64,000 nucleotides of DNA from Gemmatimonas sp. UBA7669 (GTDB taxonomy: Bacteria; Gemmatimonadota; Gemmatimonadetes; Gemmatimonadales; Gemmatimonadaceae): NCBI RefSeq assembly GCF_002483225.1, contig NZ_DLHL01000001.1, positions 63,325 to 127,324 of the forward strand, in the 5' to 3' direction. The notes under the pieces were generated by a model, which worked only from the letters and a program-made list of their open reading frames with translations, made no database searches and had not been told where the DNA came from. The translations under genes and the position numbers were made by a program. Shown here in pieces: positions 3-24,257 of this stretch; position 1 is the first letter of the stretch, and each line of letters starts with the position of its first letter.

Positions 3-1109
3 GCCGGCGGCCACCACGACCAGCAGGCTCCCGAGCCATCCGCCTGCGCCGATCACGTGCAGCGTGTCCGCCACGACCGCCAGGCCGGCGCGCCCCGGAG
101 TGGCCGCAGCGTGTCCGGAGAGTGCGGGGGTCACCGCCAGGACGACCACGCCGAACGCCGCGAGCCCCCACCCCCCTTGCCCGCGAATCGCCGTGCGGAA
201 GCCGACGATCGCCACGACCGTGGCGAGCACCTGCAACAGCCAGCCGCGTCCCCACACGGTGTCGGTGAGCATCGCACGCACGAGCTGCGGATCGAACGTC
301 GCATCCGGAGGATGCATCGCCACCGACTGCGCGCCGAGCCGCAGGAGCGCAGCTCCGCCGACGATCAGCGCGCCGAGCAGGCCGATGCGCGCGGCACCAT
401 GCCTGGAAGCGACGAGCATCGGAGCGTCTGGACCGCGCTTGCGGATCAGGAGGGGAAGCACCGCCGCCTGGAACGCGACGGCGCCGATGGCCATGAGCAG
501 GCCGAGATACAACAGTGCCCGGATGGCGGCGTACGCCGGCGACTCGGCGTCGAACGAACTGGCCGATGGCATCGACGCCTGGTCATGGTGCATCGCGGAG
601 TCGGCGGCGCCGGGTGCAGCCGGCGTCGGCGTTTGCGTCGGCGTTTGCGTCGGCGTTTGCGTCGGCGTTTGCGTCGGCGTTTGCGGCTCGCCGGACGCGG
701 GCGTCCCGGGCGGCGGTGCCGCCGGCGCCCCTTCGGCGACCGTGAACGCGTACTGCCCTCGCACCGGATGGCCATCGTCGCCCGCGATCTGCCACGTCAC
801 GGTGTAGGTGCCCGCAGCCAGTGGTGCCTCGATGCTCGCGACCAGCGCGCGCCGCGAGTCCGCGGCGACACGCAGCGGGGACAGCGCGACGGCCGCACCG
901 CCCGGCCCCCGCAACTCGAGTCGGCTGAAGGCCAGCGCCGGTGCCTCGGTGAAGGTCAACCGGATTTCTCGCGGCACGACGGTGAGTCGCTCGTTCGCGG
1001 CGGGCGCGGAGCTCTTGAGCGAACCGTGCGCCAGCGCGCGCTCGACTGGCGCAAGGAGCAGGACCGACAGCAACGCGAATCGGGAGACACGGCTCACGCC
1101 GTGTGGCAC
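3..1109 (-). CDS. copCD: CopC-CopD fusion copper resistance protein (3' partial, runs off window start)
   Basis: Absent from the ORF track because it has no stop in the window. Manual translation from GTG 1109 (GGAG RBS): signal peptide, A|HGSLKSSAP...GTYTVTWQIAGDDGHPVRG (CopC with both His ligands), QTPT linker, then membrane domain with LSGHAAA...DTLHVIGAGGWLGSL (CopD motif). Confidence 0.9.
   Translation of the reverse strand, partial: MPHGVSRVSRFALLSVLLLAPVERALAHGSLKSSAPAANERLTVVPREIRLTFTEAPALAFSRLELRGPGGAAVALSPLRVAADSRRALVASIEAPLAAGTYTVTWQIAGDDGHPVRGQYAFTVAEGAPAAPPPGTPASGEPQTPTQTPTQTPTQTPTQTPTPAAPGAADSAMHHDQASMPSASSFDAESPAYAAIRALLYLGLLMAIGAVAFQAAVLPLLIRKRGPDAPMLVASRHGAARIGLLGALIVGGAALLRLGAQSVAMHPPDATFDPQLVRAMLTDTVWGRGWLLQVLATVVAIVGFRTAIRGQGGWGLAAFGVVVLAVTPALSGHAAATPGRAGLAVVADTLHVIGAGGWLGSLLVVVAAG
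628..684. repeat. 12-bp tandem repeat (GGCGTTTGCGTC x4.75) encoding the QTPT linker of CopCD
   Basis: Read directly from the sequence; the copies are exact. Confidence 0.95.
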
Positions 1110-1159
1110 GTGTCGGCTCCGCGACCCTGACGTGCCAGGGATGACGTCTCGTGTGCGCA

Positions 1160-2209
1160 TCAGGCGGGCGGCTTCCGCATGCCGGGCATCTTGCTGTGAT
1201 CCATGCCGGGCATGGCAGGAGCGGGCTTGGCTGCGGGCTTGGCTGCGGGCTTCGCTGCCTGCTTCGCTGCCGGCTTGGCTGCAGGTCTTGATGCGGGCTT
1301 GGCCGCGGGTTTGCGGGCCGGCGTCGAGGAGGTCACTGCACCCGCCTCGCCCTTGTCCGCAGGCGATGGCGCCGTCATTCCCTGCATGCTCATGTCCATG
1401 CCCGTCATCCCGGGCATGCCGGCCATCATGCGCTGCAGGACGGGATCGGTCATCACGCGCTCGCGGATCACCGGGTCGGCCATCATGCGCATGTGGATCG
1501 CCATGAGCGTGGTGTCGCTCATCATCGACATGTTCATGCCCGACATGTTCATGCCCGACATGTTCATGCCCGACATGTTCATGCCCGACATGTTCATGCC
1601 GGCCGCGGTGCCTGTTGCTGCGCCGGTCGGCGTCGTCATCGTGGAGTGATCCATCGTCGAGTGATCCATCTTCGAATGGTCCACCGGCGCCGGCCGGCTG
1701 CCGTTCGGCGACGAGGTGAGCACCGTGTCGGTCCGCGGTGGAATCGCGCCGGTGCCCAGGGCGCCGCACGCGAGTGTCGTGGCCGCCGCGCCGGCCGACG
1801 TGCCCTGCACGACGACGTGGTACGAGCCTCCGCTCGTGAGCGGCGCATCGAGCGTCGCGCTCGCGCTGCCCGTGCCGGTCGCGTTCACGGTGATCGGTGC
1901 GAACGCACTGGCGGCGCCCGCGACGCCCTCGTCACGCGCACACGAGCCGCGACGCACCGACCACGTGCGGACCGCGCCGCCCTGATCGCCCGTCCACGCG
2001 ATGCGCACGGTCGTGCCCGCGACGGTCGCCGTGCCGGACGCCGTGCGCGAGCCCAGCGGATCGGTGAGAAGCGCCGACAGCGTGCCGTTGTTCGCCGGCG
2101 CGGACATTCCCGCGTGGCCGGCATGGTCGCCAGCCGTGGACTGCGCCTGTAGCGCGCCGCTTCCCATGACCAGCAGGGCGGCGACGGAACCGATTGAAAG
2201 CGGTCGCAT
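1160..2209 (-). CDS. Secreted Met/His-rich putative copper-binding protein with N-terminal SOD/CHRD-like beta domain
   Basis: ATG 2209 (GGAGG upstream); signal peptide MRPLSIGSVAALLVMGSGALQA; WSVRRGSC...YHVVV...LACGAL domain; DHSKMDHSTMDHSTM, (GMNMS)x5 and KPAA repeats; ends MPGMDHSKMPGM. Lies inside the copA-copB-X-copCD operon. Confidence 0.8.
   Translation of the reverse strand: MRPLSIGSVAALLVMGSGALQAQSTAGDHAGHAGMSAPANNGTLSALLTDPLGSRTASGTATVAGTTVRIAWTGDQGGAVRTWSVRRGSCARDEGVAGAASAFAPITVNATGTGSASATLDAPLTSGGSYHVVVQGTSAGAAATTLACGALGTGAIPPRTDTVLTSSPNGSRPAPVDHSKMDHSTMDHSTMTTPTGAATGTAAGMNMSGMNMSGMNMSGMNMSGMNMSMMSDTTLMAIHMRMMADPVIRERVMTDPVLQRMMAGMPGMTGMDMSMQGMTAPSPADKGEAGAVTSSTPARKPAAKPASRPAAKPAAKQAAKPAAKPAAKPAPAMPGMDHSKMPGMRKPPA
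1527..1600. repeat. 15-bp tandem repeat (GACATGTTCATGCCC x5) encoding GMNMS
   Basis: Read directly from the sequence. Confidence 0.95.
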
Positions 2210-2269
2210 CGGAGGTGCCTCCGTGAGTGATGCAGGGCCAACTGGCCCGATCGAGTGAATGAGTTCGAT

Positions 2270-2329
2270 GATGCGCGTCGCGATGCGCGTCGGGATGCTC
2301 GTCGCGATGCGCGTCGGGATGCTCATCGC
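2270..2329. repeat. 12-bp imperfect tandem repeat (GATGCGCGTCGS x5) covering the copB stop and downstream intergenic DNA
   Basis: Copies start at 2270, 2282, 2294, 2306 and 2318. Confidence 0.85.
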
Positions 2330-3147
2330 CAGATCCGCAGGCCGGCGGTGATGGTGCCGACGCTGCGCCGTTCGCCGAGGCCGTGCGCCATGGCCGCGGT
2401 CGCGCCGGTGCGCCGCAGCATCGACACGCCGACGTACGGCGCGAACTTTCGCCGGATCTCGTAGCGCATCCGCGCGCCGATCTCGACGTCGTTGAGACCC
2501 GAGCCAACGCCGATCTCCGGCACGGCCTGCACCGCCGCGTTGACCTCGATCCACGGTTGCACGATGAGCCGCTGCGTGAAGAGGAGGTCGAACGACGACT
2601 CGACCTCGAGCGAGACGTCGCCCTTGTCGCTGACGAGCAGCGTGGGCTCCACCTCGAACCAGCCCGGCGCCAGGCCGATGAAGCCGATCGCGAGCATGCC
2701 GCGCGTGAGGCGACCACCGGGCTCGCGCCGCCCGGTCGATGGATCACCGAAGTCGACCGGCGCGATGACCGTGCGCGGTCGCGTGTCGACGCGTCCGCCG
2801 GCGACGAACGACCAGAACGGCGTGATGAGCCGTCCGTAGAGCGCATCGCCCTGCATCTCTCCGCCACCGGACATCAGCGTCGACTGCTCTCCCTGCACGC
2901 GCAGATACAGGCGGCGATAGTCGCCGCCGATCCAGCTCACCAGCTCCACGTCGATCGGGCGCTCGGGCTGGTTGGCGTGGACTTCCAGCTGTTCGGCGAG
3001 GATGAACGTGCGGATGACGCGATCGAGGTCCATCCCATGTGCGGCGCCACCGGCCTGCGCGTGGACGCGTGCCGGCTGCACGAGCAGGAGCGCGGCGATC
3101 ACGAGACTCGAGCACATGACGCGCGCGCGATGCGTGACGACGCTCAT
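2323..3147 (-). CDS. copB: Copper resistance outer-membrane protein B
   Basis: ATG 3147 overlaps the copA stop (ATGA). WIGGDYRRLYL, LYGRLITPFW, GLAPGWFEVE, DLLFTQRLIVQP, GARMRYEIRRKFAPYVGV and the terminal GLRIW are typical of CopB. Confidence 0.92.
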   Translation of the reverse strand: MSVVTHRARVMCSSLVIAALLLVQPARVHAQAGGAAHGMDLDRVIRTFILAEQLEVHANQPERPIDVELVSWIGGDYRRLYLRVQGEQSTLMSGGGEMQGDALYGRLITPFWSFVAGGRVDTRPRTVIAPVDFGDPSTGRREPGGRLTRGMLAIGFIGLAPGWFEVEPTLLVSDKGDVSLEVESSFDLLFTQRLIVQPWIEVNAAVQAVPEIGVGSGLNDVEIGARMRYEIRRKFAPYVGVSMLRRTGATAAMAHGLGERRSVGTITAGLRIWR

Positions 3148-5165
3148 GATCTCGCCTCCCCCTCGGTGGTCATCGGCCCGCCGGGCTCCGACACGTGGAA
3201 CACGCGGAACATGCCGACATCCATGTGGAAGAGCACGTGACAGTGAAAGGCCCACGGTCCCGGATCCACCGGCGTCGCCAGCAGCGACACGCGCTCGGCA
3301 GGCTTCACGTTGATGGTGTGCACGTATGGGCACTCGGGCCCATGCCCGTTCTCGAGCTCCATGAACACGCCGTGCAGGTGCATCGGGTGCGCCATCATCG
3401 TGTCGTTCACGATGGTGAGGCGAATGCGCTCGCCGTGCTTGAGCGGGATCGGGTCGCGCGCATCGGAGAACTTGATGCCGTTGATCGACCACATGTAGCG
3501 CTCCATGTTGCCGGTCAGGTGCAGCTCGATCTCCCGCACAGGGGGCTCGAAGGTTTCGGCCGGCGTGAGCCGCTTCACGTCCGTCCAGACGAGCACGCGC
3601 CAACCATCTTCCCCGAGTCCGGCGCCAGGCTCCGAGAGCCGGCTCCGGGTTTCCATGGCCGTTCCGGCGCTTGCCGACCCGTGCGTGTTGTTGCCGTGCA
3701 TGACTGGCTCGGGAATCGTGCCGGGCGCCCGGAGGTTCGAGGCTCGAATGATGGTGCCGTCTCGCAACTGTCCCTCGAACACACCGGCGCCTCCGGATGC
3801 CGTCACGCCAGGCATGCTGCTCATGTCATGGCCCGCGTGACCTGATGCCGCTGCTGCCGCTGGCTTGGTCGCAGCCGCGGGCATGTCCATGCCCGGCATG
3901 CTCGCATCGGCGCCGGGCTTCGACGCCGTCCCCGTGCCCGACATGTCCATCCCAGGCATCGACATTCCCTCGTGCCCGCCCATCCCCATCGCCATGCCCA
4001 TGTCCACCATGTTGAGCGTGGGACGCGGCCGGCGGCGCGGGATCTCGGCGCTCATGCCGGCGCGCGGCGCGAGCGTGCCGCGTGCGTATCCCGAGCGATC
4101 CATCGACTCCGCGAAGATCGTGTACGCGCGATCCTCGGTGGGCTTCACGATCACATCGAATGTCTGCGCGATCTCGATGCGGAACTCGTCGAACGCGACG
4201 GGCTGCACGTGCTGGCCGCTCGCCTGCACGAGCGTCATCTCGAGGCCGGGAATGCGCACGTCGAAGTACGAACCCGCACCTGCATTGATGAAGCGCAACC
4301 GAACGCGCTCGCCTGCGCGGAACAGTCCGGTCCAGTTGGCCGCCGGCGGCAGACCGTTCAAGAGATACGTGTACGTCGAGCCCGTGACATCGGAAATGTC
4401 CGTGGGGGTCATGCGCATCTTGCCCCACTCCCAGCGGTCCGCGATGGTGGCCCGCAGCCCGTTCCGGTCGACGTCCCGGAAGAAGTCGCCGACGGTGCGG
4501 CGCTGGAAGTTGTAGTACGCCGACTGCTTCTTCAGGTTGTCGAGGATCTTGCCGGGGTCCTCGAAGGACCAGTCCGACAGCATGACCACATACTCGCGGT
4601 CGTACTGGAACGGCTCGGGTTCGGACGGGTCGATGATGAGCGGTCCGTAGTGGCCCAGCTGCTCCTGAAAGCCGGAGTGGCTGTGGTACCAGTAGGTGCC
4701 GTACTGCCGCAGCGGGAAGTCGTAGACGAACGTCTGCCCCGGATGGATGCCCGGGAAATTCACGCCCGGCACGCCATCCATGGCGTTCGGCACCAGCAGT
4801 CCATGCCAGTGAATGGAGGTGTCCTCACGCAACCGGTTCGTGACGTGAATCGTGGCACGCTCCCCTTCACGGAAGCGGAGCAACGGTCCAGGCACCGACC
4901 CGTTGATGGTCGTCGCCACGCTGCGCCGCCCGCCGAAGCCGAACGGCGTGCGATCAATGATGAGATCCACACGCGTGTCCCGACCGGAGACACCGGCCAA
5001 GGCGGCGCGGCCAGCGCCACGGTCGCTGGCAGGCAGCGCGTAGGCGGGCGCGAGGCGCTGCAAACCCGCCAGCGCGCCAACGGCGCCCGCCGCGTGCAGG
5101 AAACGGCGGCGTGTCACCGGGTGGGTAACGACGCCATCCGTGAAAGAGCGTTCCAAGTCGTTCAT
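3144..5165 (-). CDS. copA: CopA-family multicopper oxidase (Tat-exported) with Met-rich insert
   Basis: TRRRFL Tat signal; IHWHG, YWYHSH, HPMHLHG and HCHVLFHMDVGM copper-ligand motifs; MGMAMGMGGHEGMSMPGMDM insert. Confidence 0.97.
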   Translation of the reverse strand: MNDLERSFTDGVVTHPVTRRRFLHAAGAVGALAGLQRLAPAYALPASDRGAGRAALAGVSGRDTRVDLIIDRTPFGFGGRRSVATTINGSVPGPLLRFREGERATIHVTNRLREDTSIHWHGLLVPNAMDGVPGVNFPGIHPGQTFVYDFPLRQYGTYWYHSHSGFQEQLGHYGPLIIDPSEPEPFQYDREYVVMLSDWSFEDPGKILDNLKKQSAYYNFQRRTVGDFFRDVDRNGLRATIADRWEWGKMRMTPTDISDVTGSTYTYLLNGLPPAANWTGLFRAGERVRLRFINAGAGSYFDVRIPGLEMTLVQASGQHVQPVAFDEFRIEIAQTFDVIVKPTEDRAYTIFAESMDRSGYARGTLAPRAGMSAEIPRRRPRPTLNMVDMGMAMGMGGHEGMSMPGMDMSGTGTASKPGADASMPGMDMPAAATKPAAAAASGHAGHDMSSMPGVTASGGAGVFEGQLRDGTIIRASNLRAPGTIPEPVMHGNNTHGSASAGTAMETRSRLSEPGAGLGEDGWRVLVWTDVKRLTPAETFEPPVREIELHLTGNMERYMWSINGIKFSDARDPIPLKHGERIRLTIVNDTMMAHPMHLHGVFMELENGHGPECPYVHTINVKPAERVSLLATPVDPGPWAFHCHVLFHMDVGMFRVFHVSEPGGPMTTEGEARS

Positions 5166-5234: not shown

Positions 5235-5249
5235 TTTACCACGCATAAA
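5235..5249. promoter_or_regulatory. Putative BlaI-family operator 1 (TTTAC-CACGC-ATAAA), upstream of copA
   Basis: One mismatch to the TTTAC-N5-GTAAA palindrome found four more times; 70 bp upstream of the copA ATG. Confidence 0.75.
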
Positions 5250-5292
5250 ATATGCGCGCAGGTACGCTGCTCTCGCTACGGTGCGCAACGCT

Positions 5293-5321
5293 TTGACATA
5301 CCCCGCCGGCCAGCATAGCTT
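5293..5321 (+). promoter_or_regulatory. Sigma70-type promoter for copC (TTGACA-N17-TAGCTT)
   Basis: Perfect -35 at 5293-5298, 17-bp spacer, -10 at 5316-5321. Confidence 0.8.
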
Positions 5322-5329
5322 CCGGATGC

Positions 5330-5344
5330 TTTACCGCGCGTAAA
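5330..5344. promoter_or_regulatory. Putative BlaI-family operator 2 (TTTAC-CGCGC-GTAAA)
   Basis: Perfect palindromic arms just downstream of the predicted copC transcription start. Confidence 0.85.
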
Positions 5345-5405
5345 ATGCCGCGGTCACGAGGCCAGCGATGCTCCATGGCCTCCCCACGCCCTCCCGAGAT
5401 TGCCA

Positions 5406-5855
5406 ATGCCCTCATCCACGTCAGCAGCAGATACGCCTGTCGTCACCACCGTCCCCAGCCGCCGTCGCGCCGCGGTGCGCCTGCTGGCCGGGGTTACCGC
5501 CGGGCTGCTCCTCGCGCTGCCGATGACCAACGTTGGTGCCGTTCGTCACATCCGCCTCGTCAGCTCCAGCCCGGCCAAGGACGCCCACGTGATGGCGCCC
5601 TTGCGCGAGATTCGCCTGACGTTCAGCGGCAAGATCGCGGTCTCCACCGCGAGCGTGCAGCTGCTGGCCGCCGATAGCACGCGGGTGAAGGTCGGCGCGC
5701 TCACGGCCGTGCCGGATTCTGAGCGCGTCGCCGTGGCAAAGGTCTCGGAGCCGCTGAAGAACGGGACCTACACCGTGCAGTGGAAGGCCATCGCCGCGGA
5801 CGGCGCGGCGGGGTCCGGGTCGTACAGCTTCATGTACATGGCCGCGAAGAAGTAA
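5406..5855 (+). CDS. copC: CopC-family periplasmic copper-binding protein (atypical, DGH motif replaced by DGA)
   Basis: Signal peptide, then HIRLVSSSPAKD...IRLTFSGKI...GTYTVQWKAIAADG; divergent from copA. Confidence 0.85.
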   Translation: MPSSTSAADTPVVTTVPSRRRAAVRLLAGVTAGLLLALPMTNVGAVRHIRLVSSSPAKDAHVMAPLREIRLTFSGKIAVSTASVQLLAADSTRVKVGALTAVPDSERVAVAKVSEPLKNGTYTVQWKAIAADGAAGSGSYSFMYMAAKK

Positions 5856-5894
5856 CGTACGGCCGGCACGCGGCGGGAGCGCAGGATGGCTTTG

Positions 5895-6974
5895 CTACCG
5901 CCGCGTGCCGGGCGCCACGTCATGCGGGCAGGGCGCCCCTGGGGTGCGTGGATGCCCCGCGAGGCAGAACAGATGCTCCACGGCCCAGCCTTGATGCTGC
6001 GTGCAGTGGCCCGCATGGGGCGCCCCGTGTTCACTAGACGCCGGAAGGGGGTGGGCGACGGCGAGGCCCGAGCTCCATACCAGCAGGAGCCCCGCGAATG
6101 CCGCCGCGAGTGACCGCCGTGTCACGTGCGTGACCACCGGCGCCTCCTCGCCCACCAGGCGATGGATGCGTCGGTCGAGCAGCGCATCACGCTGGATGCC
6201 GATGACGACGCCCGATCCGCTCGACAGCACGCGCCCGCCCAACTCGGGATCCTGACCGGGGACCCGCCACGCTGCCAGCTTCAGGATCGCGGAGGCCAGC
6301 ACCAGCGGCTGCCCCCGCACTGCCCTGTCGTCCGCCGCGATCTCGGCGTCGTCTGCCGCATCGGCCGCGAGGCGCCGCAATGCGGGCAGCCAGAACAACG
6401 CGCAGCCGACGAATCGCAGCACCGAGAGTCGGGCGGGATCGCGCCGACGTACATGTGCGTGCTCATGCGCGAGCACCGCGGTCAGCTCCTCATCGGAGAG
6501 CGCCTCAGGGAGACGGGACGCGACGTAAATGTGCGGCCGCACCCACCCAACCGTGAACGCGGGATTCGGCAGACCGTCGACGACGCGCAGCAACGTCGGC
6601 GGCACCCCGGCCGCCGCCGCCGCCGTCCAGAACGCATCGCGGTCTCGTGGTCGCACGGCCTCGACGGTGCCGAGCAACCGCCGAACGACCAGCCACGCTC
6701 GGCCGCGATCCCACACCGCATAGGTGAGCCCGGCGATCAGCAGTCCGTGAAACACCTCATGGACTGGCGCGAGCAGCTGATGCACTGCGATGACGCAGAT
6801 CACCCAGACATGATCACGCCCTGCCAGCAACTGATCGAGGCGGGACCCAACATGATGCGCCAGCACCGGACTCGTAGCGAGCAGAATGAGGACGCCCGTC
6901 GCGAAGAGGACGAGTCGGCGATGGCGGCCCTCATGCGCGCCGGTGGCTTGGGCGGGACTGTCGCGGTGTGGCAT
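5895..6974 (-). CDS. BlaR1-like M56 family membrane metallopeptidase with His/Cys-rich extramembrane segments
   Basis: PAFTVGWVRPHIYV, ELTAVLAHEHAHVRRRDP (HExxH), EIAADDRA and LDRRIHRL are M56 signatures; AGGAGG RBS; directly downstream of the BlaI-family gene. Confidence 0.9.
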   Translation of the reverse strand: MPHRDSPAQATGAHEGRHRRLVLFATGVLILLATSPVLAHHVGSRLDQLLAGRDHVWVICVIAVHQLLAPVHEVFHGLLIAGLTYAVWDRGRAWLVVRRLLGTVEAVRPRDRDAFWTAAAAAGVPPTLLRVVDGLPNPAFTVGWVRPHIYVASRLPEALSDEELTAVLAHEHAHVRRRDPARLSVLRFVGCALFWLPALRRLAADAADDAEIAADDRAVRGQPLVLASAILKLAAWRVPGQDPELGGRVLSSGSGVVIGIQRDALLDRRIHRLVGEEAPVVTHVTRRSLAAAFAGLLLVWSSGLAVAHPLPASSEHGAPHAGHCTQHQGWAVEHLFCLAGHPRTPGAPCPHDVAPGTRR

Positions 6975-7042
6975 GTCTCCTCCTGCGCTCGCTGCGAGGA
7001 ATGGCGGCCGACCGAGGTCGCGTCGCCCTGCGTCGCCGCAGC

Positions 7043-7543
7043 TCAGCCCTTGAGCCGGCGCCGAATGAGGCGCGCGAGGTCTTCGAGCTGCTGGGGATCC
7101 TGCTCCGCGAGCACGTCGACCAGCGAGGAGGCCACCGCCTGCGGACCGAAAGAGAGAATGCCCTCGACCACACGCCGGGACGCATGCGCCATGAAATCGG
7201 CCTCCGTCATCACCGCCTCGAAATGCAACAGGCCATCGCGAGTCTTGCGGCGCAGCAAACGCTTGGCGACGAGCTTGTTGAGCACCGTGATCACGGTGAG
7301 CGCTGCGATGGCATGTGTTCGTGCCACGCGCTCGTGCACCACGCGCGCCGGCGACGGCACCCCCAATGCCCAGACGGCGGTCATCACCCGCGCTTCGAGG
7401 TCGCCCAAGACCTTCGCGAGGCCGTCCGCCGAGAGTCGAACGGTGTCCTGCAGCCGCAGCTCGGACGCGCGTGGCGCGCCCAACCCCCGGCGCTTCGTGG
7501 CCCCCGGCGCTTCCAACGTTGATGACTTACGTGGCTTGGACAC
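7043..7543 (-). CDS. BlaI/MecI/CopY family transcriptional repressor
   Basis: LGDLEARVMTAVW...TVITVLNKLVAKRLLRR winged helix and C-terminal dimerisation helices; no C-terminal CxC metal motif. Exact start uncertain. Confidence 0.92.
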   Translation of the reverse strand: MSKPRKSSTLEAPGATKRRGLGAPRASELRLQDTVRLSADGLAKVLGDLEARVMTAVWALGVPSPARVVHERVARTHAIAALTVITVLNKLVAKRLLRRKTRDGLLHFEAVMTEADFMAHASRRVVEGILSFGPQAVASSLVDVLAEQDPQQLEDLARLIRRRLKG

Positions 7544-7578
7544 GAACGACCCTCTGGCGGAAGAATGCTACTGCTGCC

Positions 7579-7607
7579 AACCTACCTGACGCTTTACCCG
7601 CCGTAAA
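7579..7607 (-). promoter_or_regulatory. Promoter of blaI-blaR (TTTACG-N17-TAGGTT) with operator 3 (TTTAC-CCGCC-GTAAA, 7593-7607) overlapping the -35
   Basis: The operator half-site doubles as the -35; exact 17-bp spacer to the -10 at 7584-7579. Confidence 0.8.
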
Positions 7608-7738
7608 GAGGCACCGGCTCTCGCGTGCTCCGGCGGTACCCCACCCTCGCCGTCCCGCCCCGTGGCTTACGACGCATCGCCCGCTCCGCGTTCATGAACA
7701 CCGCCCATCGGCCCGCGCCATCGTCGCCCCCAGACATG

Positions 7739-9028
<1,290 letters not shown>

Positions 9029-9077
9029 CTGGTCAGCACCGCGTTCTCCTTCCCTCTCCTTTCACACCACATCATCC

Positions 9078-9593
9078 ATGAAGCGATCACCTACGGTTGT
9101 GCTGCTGCTGTCCGCCGCGTTTGCATCGGTTGGAGACGCACAACGTCCCACGAGTGCTCCTGCCGCGCGGCAGCGAAGCGAGGAGGCGGCCGCCACGGCG
9201 ACGCTGCGCGCCGTGTTCGCGGCGTCCGAGCGCAACGACATGAAAGCGCTAGATACGCTGTACGCCGGCGACAGCCTCACGGTCGTCGAGGGCGCCGGGA
9301 TCAATCGCGGCTGGACGGACTACCGCGATCATCACCTGGCGCCCGAGCTGAAAGAGATGAAGAACTTCCATTACCGCCCGGTGGACATCGAGATGCACGT
9401 GTCCGGGAACGTCGCCTGGGCGATCTTCCGATACAACCTCAAGGGCGAGATGGGCGCTCGCACGCTGGACAACGTCGGCCGCGGCACTGCGATCCTCGAG
9501 CGCCGTGGATCGGGCGCGGCGACGCGGTGGGTCGTGCGCCACACGCAGACGAGTTCGCGCGCGCGCCGGCCGAACGATCCGCCGGCCGGATGA
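9078..9593 (+). CDS. Secreted NTF2-like (SnoaL/DUF4440) protein 1
   Basis: Signal peptide; LRAVFAASERNDMKALDTLY, YRDHHL and SGNVAWA...GRGTAILERR fit an NTF2-like fold. Confidence 0.75.
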   Translation: MKRSPTVVLLLSAAFASVGDAQRPTSAPAARQRSEEAAATATLRAVFAASERNDMKALDTLYAGDSLTVVEGAGINRGWTDYRDHHLAPELKEMKNFHYRPVDIEMHVSGNVAWAIFRYNLKGEMGARTLDNVGRGTAILERRGSGAATRWVVRHTQTSSRARRPNDPPAG

Positions 9594-9616
9594 AACCCAA
9601 GGCGCGCTGAATGCAG

Positions 9617-9658
9617 ATCGAGCCGGTCATCGTGATGCAGCGATGACCGGCTCGATTT
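9617..9658. terminator. Bidirectional hairpin terminator between convergent genes
   Basis: 16-bp perfect stem ATCGAGCCGGTCATCG / CGATGACCGGCTCGAT with an 8-nt loop. Confidence 0.75.
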
Positions 9659-9716
9659 GTGTGTCAGCCGCGGTGACGATGCGGCAACATCGGACGACAG
9701 CGAAGCGCCGTCCCGC

Positions 9717-10589
9717 CTAGTGCTTCGTGCCGACGTTGAACACGAACGTCGTACGCGAGACGTCCCACTCCCTCGCGGCGCCGCCCGCCTTCCGGCTGGC
9801 GTATGCGGACCGCAGCATGACCGGACCGGCCTTCGCCAGCGGGATGTGCACGACGCCCTTCGCGTCCGCCGTGAACGGGACGCGGGTGACCGAGGCCGTT
9901 GCGGCTCCCGCGCTGTCGAGGCCCGTCGCGAGCTCGATGCCGATGCCGGCGACGGGGCTTCCGCTCCCGAGCATCCGCACGTGCAGCGTGTCACCAACCT
10001 GCACGTGCGATGGGTCGTTCACCGGGACGAACTCAAGGCGTATCCCGGCTGGCTTGGCGAAGGCGCGCGGTCCGCCCGTGCCGATCTCCACAATGGTGGC
10101 GGCGTAGCCGCCGTGCGTGAAGATGACGCTGTCGAGACCCGCAAACGCGTTCTCCCGCTCCAGGCGCGCGGCTTCGAGCGCCCCACCCTCGGCCTTGAGA
10201 AACCGAATGACGCCGGCTGGCGTCTCACGAAACACGCGCGGGGCCAGCCCGATCACGATCAGGTACTGGCCGGCGGCCGCGGGTTTGTGATGCAACTGGA
10301 GCGAGGTGCCCTGAACTCCCATCTCCGTGATCTTGGCCGACGAGGACGCGCCGATGATTCGTGCGTCGACGATGCGCTCCGCCGGCACCGCGGTCCCCGC
10401 CGGAAACTTCGTTCCGCCTTGTCGCACGTTGAAGTGCATCGTGGCATTCGCCGCGAAGGCGACGAGGTCGGGAATGATCCAGGTGTCGTGTGCCAACGCG
10501 GTCGAGGCGAGGGATACCATCGCGGCCGCCGCAGCAACGAGCGTGCGAGCGGTGGGCGCTGACGTGTGCTTCCGGCGGGTGGTGCGCAT
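9717..10589 (-). CDS. DUF4198 family secreted protein 1
   Basis: Signal peptide ending ALA|HDTWIIPD; GIRLEFVPVNDP...VGDTLHVRML; FTADAKGVV...GPVML DUF4198 pattern. Confidence 0.8.
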   Translation of the reverse strand: MRTTRRKHTSAPTARTLVAAAAAMVSLASTALAHDTWIIPDLVAFAANATMHFNVRQGGTKFPAGTAVPAERIVDARIIGASSSAKITEMGVQGTSLQLHHKPAAAGQYLIVIGLAPRVFRETPAGVIRFLKAEGGALEAARLERENAFAGLDSVIFTHGGYAATIVEIGTGGPRAFAKPAGIRLEFVPVNDPSHVQVGDTLHVRMLGSGSPVAGIGIELATGLDSAGAATASVTRVPFTADAKGVVHIPLAKAGPVMLRSAYASRKAGGAAREWDVSRTTFVFNVGTKH

Positions 10590-10645
10590 AGGGAAAGCCT
10601 TGGGCGGGGGTCTGACGGCTGTCGATGGTTGCTCGACTGACTTGC

Positions 10646-10674
10646 AGGATACGACGGGTTTTACGAGGTGTAAA
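10646..10674 (-). promoter_or_regulatory. Promoter (TTTACA-N17-TATCCT) with operator 4 (TTTAC-GAGGT-GTAAA, 10660-10674) overlapping the -35
   Basis: Same geometry as the blaI promoter. Confidence 0.82.
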
Positions 10675-10755
10675 GGCGGCGCGTCGGGAATCGCACTCCC
10701 CGGTGCACACGTACTCGGCGAACTGGGGCTCGTGCCGCTCGCGCGGAAGGCGTAC

Positions 10756-10770
10756 TTTACCCACGGTAAA
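10756..10770. promoter_or_regulatory. Putative operator 5 (TTTAC-CCACG-GTAAA) upstream of the NTF2-DUF4198-BNR-TlpA-CcdA operon
   Basis: Perfect palindromic arms overlapping a -10-like TACTTT at 10753-10758; 38 bp before ATG 10809. Confidence 0.82.
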
Positions 10771-10808: not shown

Positions 10809-11276
10809 ATGCACCCCGTCCTGCGCCTTGGCGCGCTCCCTGTCGCGCTGGGAGTCTGCCTCCTCGCTTCCCCGGTCGCCGCCCAGGCCACCCGCGCCGA
10901 CTCCAGTGCCGCCGTGGCTGTAGTCGAGCAGTTCCACGCCGCCCTGACCGCCGGAGATTCTGCCCGTGCGGTGGCCGCCCTGGCCAGTGACGTGCTCGTC
11001 CTTGAGAGCGGCGCGATCCAGACCCGGACCGAGTATCTCGGCCACCACCTTGGCGCGGACATGAAGGCGAGCAAGGGATCCAAGGCGACGCGCACCGTGG
11101 TGCAGGTGCGGGTGATGGGAGACGCTGCGTACGTGGTCTCGAAGACCGTCTCGCCACCAACGGGTGCGGAGGGTTCGACGGGCTCGGAGATGGCAGAGCT
11201 GATGGTGCTTTCCAAGACAGCATCGGGCTGGAGCATCCGGGCCGTGCACTGGTCCTCGCGCCGGCGCCGCGCGTGA
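10809..11276 (+). CDS. Secreted NTF2-like (SnoaL/DUF4440) protein 2
   Basis: Signal peptide; AVVEQFHAALTAGD, YLGHHL and WSIRAVHWSS; shares the YxxHHL motif with protein 1. Confidence 0.8.
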   Translation: MHPVLRLGALPVALGVCLLASPVAAQATRADSSAAVAVVEQFHAALTAGDSARAVAALASDVLVLESGAIQTRTEYLGHHLGADMKASKGSKATRTVVQVRVMGDAAYVVSKTVSPPTGAEGSTGSEMAELMVLSKTASGWSIRAVHWSSRRRRA

Positions 11277-12178
11277 CGCGCAGTGGAGCAACCGCGGGCA
11301 GACGCAGTGCTCAAGGCCGCATACTTCGGGCAGCCGCCGTCGTCGCGGCATTGCTCGCAGGTTCGACGTCACTCCTGACCGCGCACGATTTCTGGCTGGT
11401 GCCTGATGCGTTCGCTGTGACCCCGGGCGGGCGCATCGCGCTGCGTGGTCAGACGTCGAGCCTGTTCCCGAGCAGTCTGTCGGCCGTCACGCCGGATCGC
11501 ATCGTGGCCGCGCGCGTGGTCACGGCCAACACGGCCGTTACGGTACGCGATGTCTCGGTGCTCGGGACATCGCTTCGACTTGCGCACCCGGCAGCAGCGG
11601 CTGGACAGCATCTGGTCGGCGTGCAGCTCGCGCCGCGGAACGTCCGCGAATCCCCTGCCAGCTTTCGTCGGTATCTCGATCTGGAGGGGGCGCCGGAGGC
11701 ACGGGAGCGCTATGAGCGTGAGGGGCTGCTCCCCCGCGTGGGCGGGGACAGCATCACGCGCCGCTATGCCAAGTACGCGAAGACCGTGGTCGAAGTCGGC
11801 CGCGGGCCGCGCGCCTTTCAGCGGTTGCTGGATCACCCGCTGGAGTTCGTGCCGCTCTCCGATCCGTCGGCGCTCCGCGTCGGCGACACCTTGCGGATTC
11901 GGCTCGTGTTGCTCGGCAAACCGGCGACGTCGGCGCATCTCCATGCGGGCTCTATACCGGCCGGACCAACCGCGCTCACCGACACCGCCGCGGCACGCCG
12001 CGCCGCCGCGCGTGACGTGAAGCTGGAGACCGACGCGGGTGGCGTCGCCGCCATCGTGGTGACACAGCCCGGTCTCTGGAACATCCGTACCCTGCAGATC
12101 GTGCCCGCCGCGAAGGGCTCCGGGGCCGACTGGGATGTGCATTGGGCCACGTTGGTCTTCTCGGTCGCACGACGCTGA
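11273..12178 (+). CDS. DUF4198 family secreted protein 2
   Basis: GTGA overlap with the upstream gene; LTA|HDFWLVPD; RRYAKYAKT; PLEFVPLSDP; TDAGGVA...GLWNIR. Confidence 0.85.
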   Translation: MTRSGATAGRRSAQGRILRAAAVVAALLAGSTSLLTAHDFWLVPDAFAVTPGGRIALRGQTSSLFPSSLSAVTPDRIVAARVVTANTAVTVRDVSVLGTSLRLAHPAAAAGQHLVGVQLAPRNVRESPASFRRYLDLEGAPEARERYEREGLLPRVGGDSITRRYAKYAKTVVEVGRGPRAFQRLLDHPLEFVPLSDPSALRVGDTLRIRLVLLGKPATSAHLHAGSIPAGPTALTDTAAARRAAARDVKLETDAGGVAAIVVTQPGLWNIRTLQIVPAAKGSGADWDVHWATLVFSVARR

Positions 12179-12216
12179 CCGCCGACGCTCGCCTTCCCTT
12201 CAACCATAGGCATCCG

Positions 12217-13506
12217 ATGAAGCGTCGTCTGCTTGTTGTGTGCACTGCGCTCGGCGCAGTGGCCGTCAGTATGGGCAATCGCGCCCCCGCGGATGCTCCG
12301 TCCGGCGCTACGGAGCATGGATCGTCTGGACGCGTGCTCCCGGCGCGCATCGACAGCATCGGGAGTCCCGCGGCCCCCGGAAGCGCGGAGCCGTACCTCA
12401 CGGTGGGGCCAGACGGCCGGGTATACATGTCGTGGCTCGAGCCCGCGAATCCCGGCTACGCGCTTCGCTTCGCGGTGCACGATGGCACGCGCTGGTCGCC
12501 GGCCCAGACCATCGTCACGCGCAGCGACTTCTTCGTGAACTGGGCGGACTTCCCGTCGCTCGAAGTGCTCGGCGGCAACCGCCTCGCGGCGCACTGGCTG
12601 CAGCGCAATGGCACCGGCACGTATGCCTACGGGGTGCGCATCGCGCAGTCCGCCGACGGTGGCAAGACGTGGGGAGCGCCCGTCATCCCGCATCGCGACA
12701 CCTCCCAGACCGAGCATGGCTTCGTCGCCATGTGGAACGAGGGTGGCACGCTCGGCGCGGTGTGGCTCGACGGCCGGAAGTTCAAGCAGCCAGGCCACGG
12801 CACGCCGGCGTCCGGCGGGCATGACGCCGGCAACGAGATGATGCTGGTGTCGACCACGTTGGACGCGAAGGGAGTGCGGGGGCCCGAGGTCCGACTGGAT
12901 GAGCGCACCTGCGACTGCTGCCAGAACGCCGCCGTGATGACGAGCAGCGGGCCGATTGTCGCCTACCGCAACCGAACGACCGACGAGATCCGCGACATCT
13001 ATGTCACCCGTCGAGTCGGCGCGAAATGGGTCGCCGGTGCCCCTGTTCACAACGACAACTGGAAGATTGCGGCGTGTCCGGTGAACGGGCCGGCACTCGC
13101 CGCGAGCGGCGCTCGCGTCGCCATTGCGTGGTTCACCGCCCCCGGGGACAGCGGCCGCGTCAACGTCGCCTTCTCCGACAACGCCGGCGCGACGTTCAGC
13201 GCCCCGGTGCGCGTCGACGGCGGGAGCCCCGCAGGGCGCGTGGACGTGGCGCTACTTCCTGATGGCGCCGCGCTCGTAACCTGGGTGGAGCGCGTCGGCG
13301 GCGACGTCGCCGCGGTGCGGTCCCGGCGCGTCGGGCGCGACGGCAAGGTCGGTGCGCCAATGACCATCGCCTCCAGCTCCGCGGCGCGCGCCAGCGGCTT
13401 TCCGCGCGCCGCGATCACTGGATCGAACGTGCTCTTTGCGTGGACGGTGCCCGGCCGGCCGTCGGCGCTGCGTGTTGCCCGTGCCTCGCTCGCGGAGTTT
13501 CGATGA
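12217..13506 (+). CDS. BNR/Asp-box (sialidase-like beta-propeller) secreted protein with CDCC motif
   Basis: SADGGKTW and SDNAGATFS Asp-boxes; FFVNWADFPS, ERTCDCCQ and WKIAACPVNGP. Confidence 0.8.
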   Translation: MKRRLLVVCTALGAVAVSMGNRAPADAPSGATEHGSSGRVLPARIDSIGSPAAPGSAEPYLTVGPDGRVYMSWLEPANPGYALRFAVHDGTRWSPAQTIVTRSDFFVNWADFPSLEVLGGNRLAAHWLQRNGTGTYAYGVRIAQSADGGKTWGAPVIPHRDTSQTEHGFVAMWNEGGTLGAVWLDGRKFKQPGHGTPASGGHDAGNEMMLVSTTLDAKGVRGPEVRLDERTCDCCQNAAVMTSSGPIVAYRNRTTDEIRDIYVTRRVGAKWVAGAPVHNDNWKIAACPVNGPALAASGARVAIAWFTAPGDSGRVNVAFSDNAGATFSAPVRVDGGSPAGRVDVALLPDGAALVTWVERVGGDVAAVRSRRVGRDGKVGAPMTIASSSAARASGFPRAAITGSNVLFAWTVPGRPSALRVARASLAEFR

Positions 13507-14054
13507 GTTGTGGGGACCCAACGCGCCGGGCCACGGCGCTGTTCACGTTCGCATTGCTCGCGATCAGCGGCTGCACGTCAGCGGAGCGCAGCGGGAACGC
13601 CGCGGCGGGCGACGGCCGAGTGGAGGTTGGCTTTGCAGCTCCGGCGTACGCCACGGTGTCGCTTGACGGCGATTCGGTTTCGCTCGCCGGGCAGCGTGGC
13701 AAGGTCGTGCTGCTCAACGTGTGGGCGACGTGGTGTCACCCGTGCCGCACGGAGATCCCGGAGCTGCGCGCGATCCATGCGAAGTATCAGGCGCAGGGCC
13801 TGGAACTCATCGGCGTCAGCGTCGATACGGACGGCACCGACGAGGCCATCCGCACCTTCATGCGCGACTTCCAGATGACCTTCCCAATCTGGCGCGATCC
13901 GGACGAGCGGGTGTCGACACAGTTCCTCGTGGTGGGTGTGCCGGCGACGTTCCTGATCGACAAGGCAGGCGTCCTCCGCTGGCGAAAGACCGGCCCGATT
14001 GCGCCGGGCGATACGTCGCTCACGGCGGCTATCGAACGCGCGCTGGGCTCGTAG
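13503..14054 (+). CDS. TlpA/ResA family thiol-disulfide oxidoreductase
   Basis: VVLLNVWATWCHPCRTEIP; GVPATFLIDKAG; ATGA overlap with the upstream gene. Confidence 0.92.
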   Translation: MSCGDPTRRATALFTFALLAISGCTSAERSGNAAAGDGRVEVGFAAPAYATVSLDGDSVSLAGQRGKVVLLNVWATWCHPCRTEIPELRAIHAKYQAQGLELIGVSVDTDGTDEAIRTFMRDFQMTFPIWRDPDERVSTQFLVVGVPATFLIDKAGVLRWRKTGPIAPGDTSLTAAIERALGS

Positions 14055-14779
14055 TGCAGTCCGCGTCCATTGGCGTCACCATCAGCTTCACCGCCGGCGT
14101 CCTGAGCTTCCTCTCGCCGTGCGTGCTGCCGCTCATCCCGAGCTACGTGAGCTTCATCACGGGCATGAGCCTCGACGACGTGCAGCGCTCTCGCCGGACG
14201 ACGCTGCTCCACGCGCTGCTCTTCGTCGCTGGCTTCACCATCGTCTTCATGGCGCTGGGCGCCACGGCCACGGTGCTCGGCCGCCTGTTCCATCAGGAGC
14301 GCGATTGGGTGGGCCGCGTGGGCGGCGTGCTGGTGATCGTGCTCGGGCTCTACTTGCTGGGCGTCTTCAACATCGGCGCGTTCTCCCGCGAACGTCGCGT
14401 GCACATCGCGAACAAACCCCTGGGCTACCTCGGCACGGTGCTCGTGGGGATGGCGTTCGCCGCCGGGTGGACCCCGTGCATCGGCCCGATCCTGGGCGGC
14501 GTGCTCACCTACACGGCAAGTTCGGCGGACCTGAACCGCGGGCTGTTGCTGCTCTTCGCGTACTCGCTCGGGCTGGCGCTCCCGTTCCTGCTCGCCGCGC
14601 TCATGATCGACAAGTTCATGGCAGTCTTTCAGCGCTACAAAGGGGCGCTCGTGTGGATGTCGCGCGCGTCCGGGGTGTTGTTGATCGGGATCGGCATCCT
14701 GATGATCACCGGCAGCATGACCGTCCTCACGACGTGGCTGCAGCAGTGGACGCCGGACGCACTCCGCAACCGCATCTAG
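14054..14779 (+). CDS. ccdA: Cytochrome c biogenesis/thiol-disulfide transporter CcdA
   Basis: AGVLSFLSPCVLPLIPSY and AAGWTPCIGPILG motifs; GTG overlaps the tlpA stop. Confidence 0.92.
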   Translation: MQSASIGVTISFTAGVLSFLSPCVLPLIPSYVSFITGMSLDDVQRSRRTTLLHALLFVAGFTIVFMALGATATVLGRLFHQERDWVGRVGGVLVIVLGLYLLGVFNIGAFSRERRVHIANKPLGYLGTVLVGMAFAAGWTPCIGPILGGVLTYTASSADLNRGLLLLFAYSLGLALPFLLAALMIDKFMAVFQRYKGALVWMSRASGVLLIGIGILMITGSMTVLTTWLQQWTPDALRNRI

Positions 14780-17908: not shown

Positions 17909-18019
17909 TCGGCTGCGGACCGTCACACTTCATGAATTGTGCGTCACAGTGGATGCGCGGGGGCCGTTTTTGGTTAGTGTTGGGCGCTGACGGACTCTTC
18001 CTCTTCTCTCTCCCTTCGC

Positions 18020-18691
18020 ATGCGGATACTCGTCATCGAAGATGACCACCTCGTCGCGGATCTGATGCGGCAGGTGCTGGTGGACGACGGCTACACGGTG
18101 GACGTGGCGGCAGCGGCCGAAGAAGGTCGGCAGTTGGTGGCGGCGCAGCCCTACGACGCCATCGTGCTGGACCTCGAGCTGCCCGATCGCCACGGCATTC
18201 AGTTGTTGCAGGACTTCCGTCGGGAAGGCAGTACGATTCCCATCGTGGTGGCCACAGCGCACGACAGCAACGCGGATGTGGTCCGCGCTCTCGATGCAGG
18301 CGCCGATGACTACCTGCCCAAGCCATTTGCGAACGAAGTCCTCGCCGCGCGCGTGCGTGCCGCGGTGCGACGTGGCGGCGCGCGCAGCATGGAGAAGGTG
18401 CAGGTCGGTGATCTGACTCTGCACCGCGTGAATCACGAAGTGCAGTGTCACGGTCAGCTGCTCAATCTCACGGCGCGGCAGTACGCGCTGCTCGAGTACC
18501 TGGCCATGCGCGCCGGCGAAACCGTGCGACGCTCGGCGCTGCTCGAGCACGTCTGGCACCTCAAGTTCGACCCCGGCTCGAACGTGGTCGACGTGCACGT
18601 GGCGCAGTTGCGCAAGCGGCTGCGCGATGCCAACAGCACGGTGGACATTCGCACCGTGCGCGGCGAAGGCTACGCGCTCGACGTGACCTGA
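18020..18691 (+). CDS. OmpR-family response regulator (no adjacent kinase)
   Basis: ILVIEDD, VLDLELPD and GADDYLPKPF receiver motifs; NVVDVHV...IRTVRGEGY winged helix. Confidence 0.95.
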   Translation: MRILVIEDDHLVADLMRQVLVDDGYTVDVAAAAEEGRQLVAAQPYDAIVLDLELPDRHGIQLLQDFRREGSTIPIVVATAHDSNADVVRALDAGADDYLPKPFANEVLAARVRAAVRRGGARSMEKVQVGDLTLHRVNHEVQCHGQLLNLTARQYALLEYLAMRAGETVRRSALLEHVWHLKFDPGSNVVDVHVAQLRKRLRDANSTVDIRTVRGEGYALDVT

Positions 18692-24175: not shown

Positions 24176-24257
24176 GGACGACAATCAGGCTGGGGGAGAG
24201 GCGTTCTGCCAGTCGTTCGGCAACGATTTGCATCGTGCAGGATCAACCAGCAATCAC

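Follow-up and report, generated by a model that had tools for sequence, protein, structure and literature searches.

PetR and PetP (Slr0240 and Slr0241) of Synechocystis sp. PCC 6803 form a copper-dependent switch composed of a BlaI-type repressor and an M56-type protease (Garcia-Canas et al. 2021; bioRxiv 10.1101/2020.07.31.226407). PetR is a factor of the BlaI/CopY family without the metal ligands of CopY, and binds the inverted repeat GAC-N5-GTC; its DNA binding is unchanged by copper, and it is degraded only when PetP and copper are both present. PetP is an M48/M56 protease in which a cytoplasmic HExxH domain lies between transmembrane (TM) helices; it has no beta-lactam domain, and the ligands proposed for it are two methionines in a 14-residue outer loop. 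The output of the switch is a cofactor swap that involves four genes (petE, petJ and slr0601/2) (bioRxiv 10.1101/2020.07.31.226407). This is the only experimentally shown BlaI/M56 proteolytic copper switch in the literature searched. A survey from 2023 gives the role of BlaR homologues in heterotrophs as unknown (PMC10141476), and the accessible part of a 2024 review of metal sensing names CopY alone as the metal sensor of this family (PMC11672702). Our literature search found no paper on a BlaI/M56 pair controlling resistance genes of the cop/pco type. The locus presented here, a BlaI/MecI-family repressor gene and a short M56 protease gene at positions 5895-7543, lies in a 64-kb stretch of Gemmatimonas sp. 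UBA7669 DNA, referred to as the window (positions 63325-127324 of contig C4 in a 4.63-Mb assembly of 66% GC).

The two genes are on the same strand, separated by 68 bp, within a cluster of copper genes. We propose that the pair acts as a PetR/PetP-type transmembrane switch that works in one step, responds to copper and governs copper resistance, a reading to which we give a probability of roughly 0.6. Its core, a BlaI-type repressor and a sensor-less M56 protease running a copper regulon through a palindrome, had been suggested in a preliminary description of the same DNA, and comparative genomics strongly supports it. That description knew of no such system; PetR/PetP had in fact already been described (bioRxiv 10.1101/2020.07.31.226407).

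The window was searched for the 15-bp palindrome TTTAC-N5-GTAAA with up to one mismatch. Four exact copies and a single one-mismatch copy were found (O1 to O5, Table 1), at exactly the five positions given in the preliminary description, and there is no further match at this stringency anywhere in the 64 kb, in line with its remark that no other copy had been noticed. In 100 dinucleotide-preserving shuffles of the window, the mean number of matches was 0.03 and the maximum 1; none of the shuffles reached five. All five sites are intergenic, about 40-80 bp 5' of the first gene of each unit, and family scans agree with the earlier gene map, in which the copies lie ahead of cop, regulator, DUF4198 and NTF2-like units. 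The enriched palindrome has the spacing TAC-N5-GTA and so departs, by the one extra base already pointed out, from the canonical BlaI/MecI/CopY operator TACA-N2-TGTA (TAC-N4-GTA).

In the syntenic locus of a congener (G092; 72-85% amino-acid identity) the intergenic DNA has diverged, yet the half-sites are retained. O1 aligns there with an exact site, TTTACGCGTAGTAAA, 5' of copA, with the flanks GCGCATATTTTA..GTAAAGCG kept. A site directly 5' of copC, the position of O2, also occurs in five relatives (L021, L022, L080, L085 and L087) and on contigs C1, C8 and C20 of the same genome. O3 is kept 5' of the congener's repressor gene, where the divergent ORF 7625-9028 is missing, and its placement is compatible with autoregulation. 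One half of O3 coincides with the -35-like hexamer of TTTACG-17-TAGGTT (7607-7579, minus strand), which had been taken for a promoter; the sequence and the 17-bp spacing are as described, but the hexamers are weak (7/12) and a consensus promoter scan does not list them. The same scan independently picked up TTTACA-17-TATCCT at O4, a promoter also proposed earlier, and both O4 and its -10 TATCCT are kept in the congener. When O1, O2 and O5 were inspected by eye for consensus promoters, just weak hexamers were seen.

In the whole genome the exact palindrome occurs 12 times, compared with none for a reversed-pattern control. At least 10 of the 12 copies lie directly 5' of copper genes or regulator genes, the copper genes counted being those for CopA-type multicopper oxidases (MCO), CopC, copper-type P1B ATPases, DUF4198 proteins and NTF2-like proteins. 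Relaxing the search to one mismatch raises the count to 27, with clusters on contigs C4, C8, C20, C25, C38 and C56; beyond the 12 exact operators, about eight one-mismatch copies lie in copper islands. Exact sites precede three MCO genes (C4, C8 and C38), the gene for a copper-type P1B-1 ATPase (C4:16119-18359; 564 bits for TIGR01511), copC homologues on C1, C4, C8 and C20, DUF4198 genes, NTF2-like genes, repressor genes and, at the end of a contig, the gene for an RND outer-membrane factor (C25:910). One-mismatch sites are found directly 5' of copD and DUF305 genes on C56 and of an ATPase/NTF2-like pair on C20; a further one-mismatch copy on C56 lies about 600 bp 5' of a CusCBA-like RND set.

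Seven BlaI/M56 pairs are encoded in the genome. In three of them the protease is long, its open frame spanning about 500-660 codons, and no motif is nearby. Only the four pairs with short proteases of 340-360 aa, on C4 (the window pair), C8, C20 and C38, adjoin motif sites, and each sits in a motif-bearing copper island. The four paralogous repressors are 50-56% identical to one another and the proteases 39-45%. What had been described as one pair with five operators is, at the scale of the genome, a set of four paralogous pairs with 12 exact and about eight one-mismatch operators.

The short-protease subfamily is present in 16 of 201 Gemmatimonadota genomes, mostly as a single copy and mostly within the same family; among the matches listed, the closest public relatives of the protease come from Gemmatimonas sp., Gemmatimonadaceae and Gemmatimonadota metagenome-assembled genomes (MAGs), at 43-57% identity. 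Homologues of the window proteins and the motif were mapped in 20 kb around each of 16 related loci, from 14 of those genomes and two public MAGs. The repressor gene stands directly before the protease gene in every one of them (20/20 when the pairs of the window's own genome are included). At about 13 of the 16 loci the pair is adjoined by genes for MCO, copB, copC, P1B-ATPase, DUF4198, NTF2-like or TlpA/CcdA proteins, and at about 10 exact palindromes lie in intergenic regions. Two layouts recur: an MCO gene and the repressor-protease pair diverge from one or more sites, with a further site and copC behind the pair; or an ATPase gene and an NTF2-like gene diverge from several sites.

The motif and the pair co-occur across genomes. 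Within the family the exact motif is found in 12 of 14 genomes that have the pair versus 4 of 25 that do not (Fisher p = 3e-5, or 7e-5 once the window's own genome is dropped). In about 100 genomes of a sister family the pair is absent, and just three of them have a motif copy, a single one each. Of 26 exact sites in relatives, 14 fall in the 20-kb neighbourhood of the protease gene, a stretch that makes up ~0.5% of a genome. The enrichment near cop genes with such pairs, for which the preliminary description had proposed a test, is present both in the genome and in its relatives. A wider contig search returned, among the matches listed, mostly distant actinobacterial M56 genes without the motif. 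When 31 exact sites (62 half-sites) are aligned, 56 half-sites have C or T at position -1 and 50 have A or G at position -2, while the five-base spacer is not conserved; the operator consensus is therefore RY-TTTAC-N5-GTAAA-RY. The assignment of operator, repressor and regulon to one another is very likely correct.

A different palindrome was seen in four genomes of another family of the same class (G064, G087, G192 and G130), which have 6-27 copies of the AT-rich TTTACA-N3-TGTAAA, for example TTTACATAATGTAAA; the reversed-pattern control gives 0 in three of these genomes and 2 in the fourth. The short-protease subfamily has no match in the four genomes, and their palindrome probably belongs to a different regulon, perhaps that of another BlaI-family protein.

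The protease consists of 359 residues, with three TM segments by hydropathy (19-42, 56-75, possibly extending to 88, and 288-310) and a strongly basic stretch after the second. An AlphaFold2 model (predicted local distance difference test, pLDDT, 77; predicted template-modelling score, pTM, 0.75) shows three long helices that match these segments, the protease domain being inserted between helices two and three. Taken together, hydropathy and the model indicate a cytoplasmic protease domain and a final stretch of 52 residues on the outside. In a Foldseek search with the model, the top matches are structures of Staphylococcus aureus BlaR1 (8exq, 8ext, 8exp and 8exr; probability 1.00), 8exq and 8exr being cryo-EM structures of BlaR1 that include the isolated TM/protease module. 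A search of the PDB with the sequence profile returned only HtpX and Ste24; the kinship with BlaR1 is seen by fold alone. The elements H170-E171-x-x-H174, RRDP and E211 are invariant in 18 orthologues. The generic BlaR1 model NF000326 (blaR1_generic) scores 19.4 bits against a cut-off of 400, and no transpeptidase or beta-lactamase Pfam domain is found in the protein, which ends 52 residues past the last TM helix.

Several histidines and cysteines are conserved on the outer side. At least 90% of the 18 orthologues share H55, C60, H65 and H308; H41, H72 and H76 do not vary among the four paralogues and recur in most orthologues. The conserved residues lie where TM1, TM2 and TM3 reach the outer face. 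The tail of the window protease (308-359) holds eight histidines and three cysteines, and its motif HCxH...HLFC...CPH, which stands where BlaR1 has its penicillin-binding domain, is retained in about 15 of 19 sequences.

In the proposed switch, the cysteine-free repressor would, without copper, sit as a dimer on RY-TTTAC-N5-GTAAA-RY, at operators that would overlap or abut the promoters of copA-copB-X-copC(D), copC, the repressor/protease operon, the DUF4198 gene and the NTF2-DUF4198-BNR-TlpA-CcdA operon. Elsewhere in the genome the regulon would take in two more MCO operons, three copper-type P1B ATPases, copC and copD genes, DUF305 and one RND outer-membrane gene. Excess periplasmic copper, most likely Cu(I) and possibly Ag(I) too, would be bound by the conserved histidines and cysteines of the protease, at the outer ends of the three TM helices and in the C-terminal tail. 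Metal binding would activate the cytoplasmic HExxH domain, the repressor would be cut and the regulon derepressed. Copper is likely to be the signal; a little less firmly, inactivation of the repressor by the protease appears probable by analogy with the known pairs. The assignment of the loop and tail His/Cys cluster as the sensing site is tentative.

The circuit could instead respond to another signal, either thiol/disulfide damage in the envelope or a soft metal (Ag, Cd, Zn or Hg) acting on the outward Cys/His residues. The three conserved cysteines of the protease tail would suit such a signal, as would the TlpA and CcdA/DsbD_TM genes of the regulon and a thioredoxin-like gene near the C4 ATPase island. 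However, TlpA and CcdA serve cuproprotein maturation, the genes behind the operators are mostly copper-specific (CopA-type MCO, CopB, CopC, CopD and copper-type P1B-1 ATPases), and the Zn/Cd-type P1B ATPase of the window (23577-26123, plus strand) has no palindrome site. We regard a signal other than copper as unlikely.

A further alternative is that the repressor itself senses the metal, or a loaded chaperone, in the manner of CopY, and that the M56 protein just turns the repressor over or has an unrelated membrane function. The repressor has 166 residues and a GTG start. Its closest solved relatives are MecI, BlaI and 2g9w; the last is titled 'conserved hypothetical protein' in the PDB, and we take it to be M. 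tuberculosis BlaI (Rv1846c). Two segments of the repressor are invariant in the four paralogues, namely LT..TVLN.LV.K in the recognition helix and the C-terminal S-x-VDVLAE-x-DP, which aligns to the helix that presumably carries the cleavage site in BlaI and MecI. Two histidines, H70 and H77, are invariant among the four paralogous repressors as well and would suit a sensing role. Against this, the protein has no C-terminal extension and contains no cysteine at all, which excludes a CopY-type Cu(I) site and goes further than the missing CxC motif noted previously; the CopY_TcrY model TIGR02698 scores 27.8 bits, under its cut-off of 121.95. The outward His/Cys residues are conserved in the protease and not in the repressor, and the protease gene follows the repressor gene at all 20 loci. 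In the related cyanobacterial system copper leaves the DNA binding of PetR unaffected (bioRxiv 10.1101/2020.07.31.226407). Sensing by the repressor is quite improbable.

The operator sequence bears on the last alternative: known CsoR and CueR operators are unlike the TTTAC-N5-GTAAA palindrome. That the palindrome is bound by a CsoR, MerR/CueR-like or OmpR-type regulator, or is a promoter element, with the pair a mere passenger of the copper islands, is very improbable: CsoR and MerR-like genes are on the same contig, an OmpR-family regulator lies 3 kb from the cluster and one half-site is -35-like, but the motif tracks the pair across genomes and also precedes the repressor gene, a perfect dyad flanked symmetrically by RY suits a dimeric winged-helix protein and not a sigma factor, PetR binds an operator of the same xAC-N5-GTx geometry, and the OmpR-type regulator scores under the CopR cut-off and is without a homologue at all 16 related loci.

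The preliminary description had reported no CusRS, CopRS or CueR in the copper cluster. An OmpR-type response regulator is in fact encoded at 17978-18691, 3 kb beyond the cluster, although it reaches only 187 bits against the CopR/CusR cut-off of 279; not CopR-like and missing from all of the related loci, it was set aside as a binder of the motif. CueR was set aside as well, the genome having no CueR equivalog (best score 95 bits against a cut-off of 147), and so was CsoR, whose homologues occur only beside other ATPases. No protein of the genome reaches the cut-off for CopS/CusS.

A number of observations weigh against the proposed copper switch. Four orthologous loci (L081, L086, L089 and L090) have no site at up to one mismatch, and a close paralogue of the Cu-ATPase (C4:26683-28887) also lacks one. 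The four paralogous repressors have one operator consensus in common, which opens the way to cross-talk and clouds the logic of derepression. The tail of the protease is modelled at low confidence (pLDDT <50) and is missing or divergent in L086, L089, L091 and L092, and the protease gene of the C20 pair is frameshifted. TlpA and CcdA in the regulon would suit a thiol or redox signal too. Lastly, CsoR homologues (C4:21871-22113 and C8:32575-32811) and MerR/CueR-like regulators (C4:5853, C4:13574-13903 and C27:6996) are found beside other metal ATPases, so that copper control is not exclusive to the BlaI/M56 system.

Two details concern these observations. In the C20 gene (C20:7995-9009; L014) the M56 protease matches fall in two frames, 7995-8282 and 8320-9009; a frameshift or sequencing error falls immediately ahead of the final TM helix and the Cys/His tail. 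The P1B ATPases beside the regulators at C4:13574-13903, C4:21871-22113 and C8:32575-32811 have no palindrome sites, and three or more types of metal regulator seem to operate in parallel in this genome.

Table 1. Predicted operators and genes of the copper cluster (window coordinates; scores in bits).
Feature	Position	Strand	Remarks
Operator O1 (predicted)	5235-5249		TTTACCACGCATAAA, one mismatch; 70 bp 5' of the copA (MCO) start codon at 5165
Operator O2 (predicted, exact)	5330-5344		5' of copC; TTGACA-17-TAGCTT promoter-like pair at 5294-5322 just before
Operator O3 (predicted, exact)	7593-7607		50 bp 5' of the repressor gene
Operator O4 (predicted, exact)	10660-10674		overlaps the -35 of the DUF4198 promoter TTTACA-17-TATCCT (10674-10646, minus strand)
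Operator O5 (predicted, exact)	10756-10770		39 bp 5' of the ATG (10809) of the NTF2-DUF4198-BNR-TlpA-CcdA operon; kept in G092
copC-domain protein, last gene of the copA operon	3-1130	-	PF04234 76; open-ended ORF, leaves the window at its left end
ORF between copB and copC(D)	1160-2554	-	no Pfam or NCBIfam match
copB, outer-membrane copper resistance protein B	2323-3603	-	PF05275 199
copA, CopA/PcoA-type MCO, first gene of the operon behind O1	3144-5165	-	TIGR01480 778 (cut-off 479); three Cu-oxidase Pfam domains
Second copC, behind O2	5400-5855	+	PF04234 70; copper_CopC 71.9, under the cut-off of 95
M56/M48 protease	5895-6974	-	PF05569 48.3 (cut-off 31); PF01435 36.6
BlaI/MecI-family repressor	7043-7543	-	PF03965 64.2 (cut-off 22.6), residues 46-160
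DUF4198 periplasmic protein, behind O4	9717-10589	-	PF10670 78; signal peptide ...ALA|HDTW
Operon behind O5	10809-14779	+	Pfam scans
Exported NTF2/SnoaL-like protein, O5 operon	10809-11276	+	
DUF4198, O5 operon	11273-12178	+	
BNR-like protein, O5 operon	12142-13506	+	
TlpA thioredoxin, O5 operon	13440-14054	+	
CcdA/DsbD_TM, O5 operon	13721-14779	+	

The genes of the cluster are listed in Table 1. The copB ORF as listed overlaps copA, and its true start is probably near 3140; the copC-domain gene at the left end of the window is probably a CopCD fusion. Homologues of the ORF at 1160-2554 come after copB in the congener and on contig C20. The whole operon behind O5 is syntenic in the congener, at 72-83% amino-acid identity, and is partly present beside the pair in another genome (G168). 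NCBIfam was uninformative on the repressor, the protease, the DUF4198 and BNR-like proteins or the ORFs at 1160-2554 and 7625-9028. As for the control of a Gram-negative cop cluster, which the preliminary description attributed to the pair, the link to a cop regulon is well supported; the host belongs to the Gemmatimonadota, and this is not a classical proteobacterial cop system.

Cleavage of the signal peptide of the DUF4198 protein behind O4 would leave a mature protein that starts with His, and an N-terminal-His copper site is conceivable; DUF4198 genes are found repeatedly beside the pair in relatives. An extra SnoaL/DUF4440-like domain is encoded at 8733-9593 (plus strand; residues 157-260 of the ORF), between ORF 7625-9028 and the DUF4198 gene, so that the NTF2-like plus DUF4198 module occurs twice in the cluster. 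ORF 7625-9028 itself (plus strand, 467 aa) lies between the repressor gene and the DUF4198 gene and has a strong coding signal and no Pfam or NCBIfam match. It is missing from the syntenic locus of the congener, and paralogues with 61-73% amino-acid identity are found in two other copper islands (C25:15833, at a contig end, and C56:10979-12253); it may be a mobile or island-associated gene rather than a member of the regulon. Farther along the window, the stop-to-stop ORF of the Zn/Cd-type ATPase overlaps the ORF of a PAS-GAF histidine kinase (22553-24184, minus strand) by 600 bp, and the true start of the ATPase is probably near 24200.

A profile search returned 125 cluster representatives at E<=1e-30, taken as the subfamily, and 7,011 at E<=1e-10. 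Many of the sampled representatives at E<=1e-10 are 300-350 aa long, with the same TM/protease plan and Cys/His- or Met-rich tails. Among the distant short M56 proteases (P0104, P0130 and others), tails are either Met-rich, as in ...MPMMSCSLPM... and ...RPMMAMPMMPGCPVMC..., or CPH/His-rich. Across this large family, the variation of the outer tail suggests an exchangeable module for metal binding.

It is conceivable, as a tentative generalization, that short M56 proteases whose outer tails are rich in Cys/His or Met make up a large and so far unrecognised group of one-component transmembrane metal sensors, PetP being a minimal example; that four such proteases, with their cysteine-free BlaI repressors, together run essentially the whole copper resistome of Gemmatimonas-like bacteria by regulated proteolysis; and that the histidines and cysteines of tail and loop make up a new periplasmic Cu(I) module gating a BlaR-type protease. 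Copper resistance is classically controlled by CueR (of the MerR family), CsoR, CopY or CopRS/CusRS. If the generalization is true, proteolytic sensors would fill the role that CueR, CsoR or CopRS/CusRS have in other bacteria, and the resistome so run would comprise MCO, CopB/C/D, Cu-ATPases and CusCBA-like pumps. The locus would be a concrete case of the PetRP principle driving classical copper resistance. It comes with an operator defined to 15-19 bp, some 20 promoters as candidate targets and a delimited set of candidate ligand residues, and it suggests what many of the sensor-less M56 proteases among the 7,011 representatives may sense. Since the genus has complete genomes, probably of cultured strains, genetics should be feasible.

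The described systems resemble this locus to different degrees. CopY/TcrY/CopR of Enterococcus, Streptococcus and Lactococcus are, like the present repressor, of the BlaI family; they repress copper export and recognize a TAC/GTA inverted repeat (PMC7253601; PMC10141476). In contrast to the switch proposed here, CopY senses Cu(I) through its own C-terminal CxCx4CxC, without a protease, and its cop box is TACA-N2-TGTA. The BlaI/BlaR1 and MecI/MecR1 systems of S. aureus and B. licheniformis share with the window pair the PF03965 repressor, the PF05569 protease with the BlaR1 TM/protease fold, the adjoining repressor and protease genes and an operator 5' of the pair. The window protease, however, lacks the C-terminal penicillin-binding sensor domain of BlaR1 and MecR1 (359 aa compared with about 585), there is no beta-lactamase or PBP2a gene near the pair, and the operator spacing is one base longer.

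The likeness to PetR/PetP, drawn from published features and geometry, extends further. In both cases the repressor gene lies directly 5' of the gene for a short, sensor-less M48/M56 protease, and the repressor has no CopY cysteine motif. The proteases follow the same plan, namely a TM helix, an outer loop of 12-14 residues, a second TM helix, the cytoplasmic HExxH domain and a further TM helix, and match both the M56 and the M48 families. The operators are N5-spaced inverted repeats of the form xAC-N5-GTx, with TTTAC as the half-site of the predicted operator here and GAC as that of PetR, and both systems are linked to copper, the present one by gene context. The differences lie in the output, a copper-resistance regulon with about 20 candidate operators in place of a four-gene cofactor swap, and in the candidate sensor: the loop of the window protease (44-55) has no methionine, with His/Cys residues at the loop ends and in TM2 instead, and a 52-aa tail with eight His and three Cys is present where none has been described for PetP, which carries one extra N-terminal TM helix. 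The present system also belongs to another phylum, the Gemmatimonadota, and comprises four paralogous pairs. While the principle of the switch is already known from PetR/PetP, its proposed output, the candidate sensor residues and the phylum are new.

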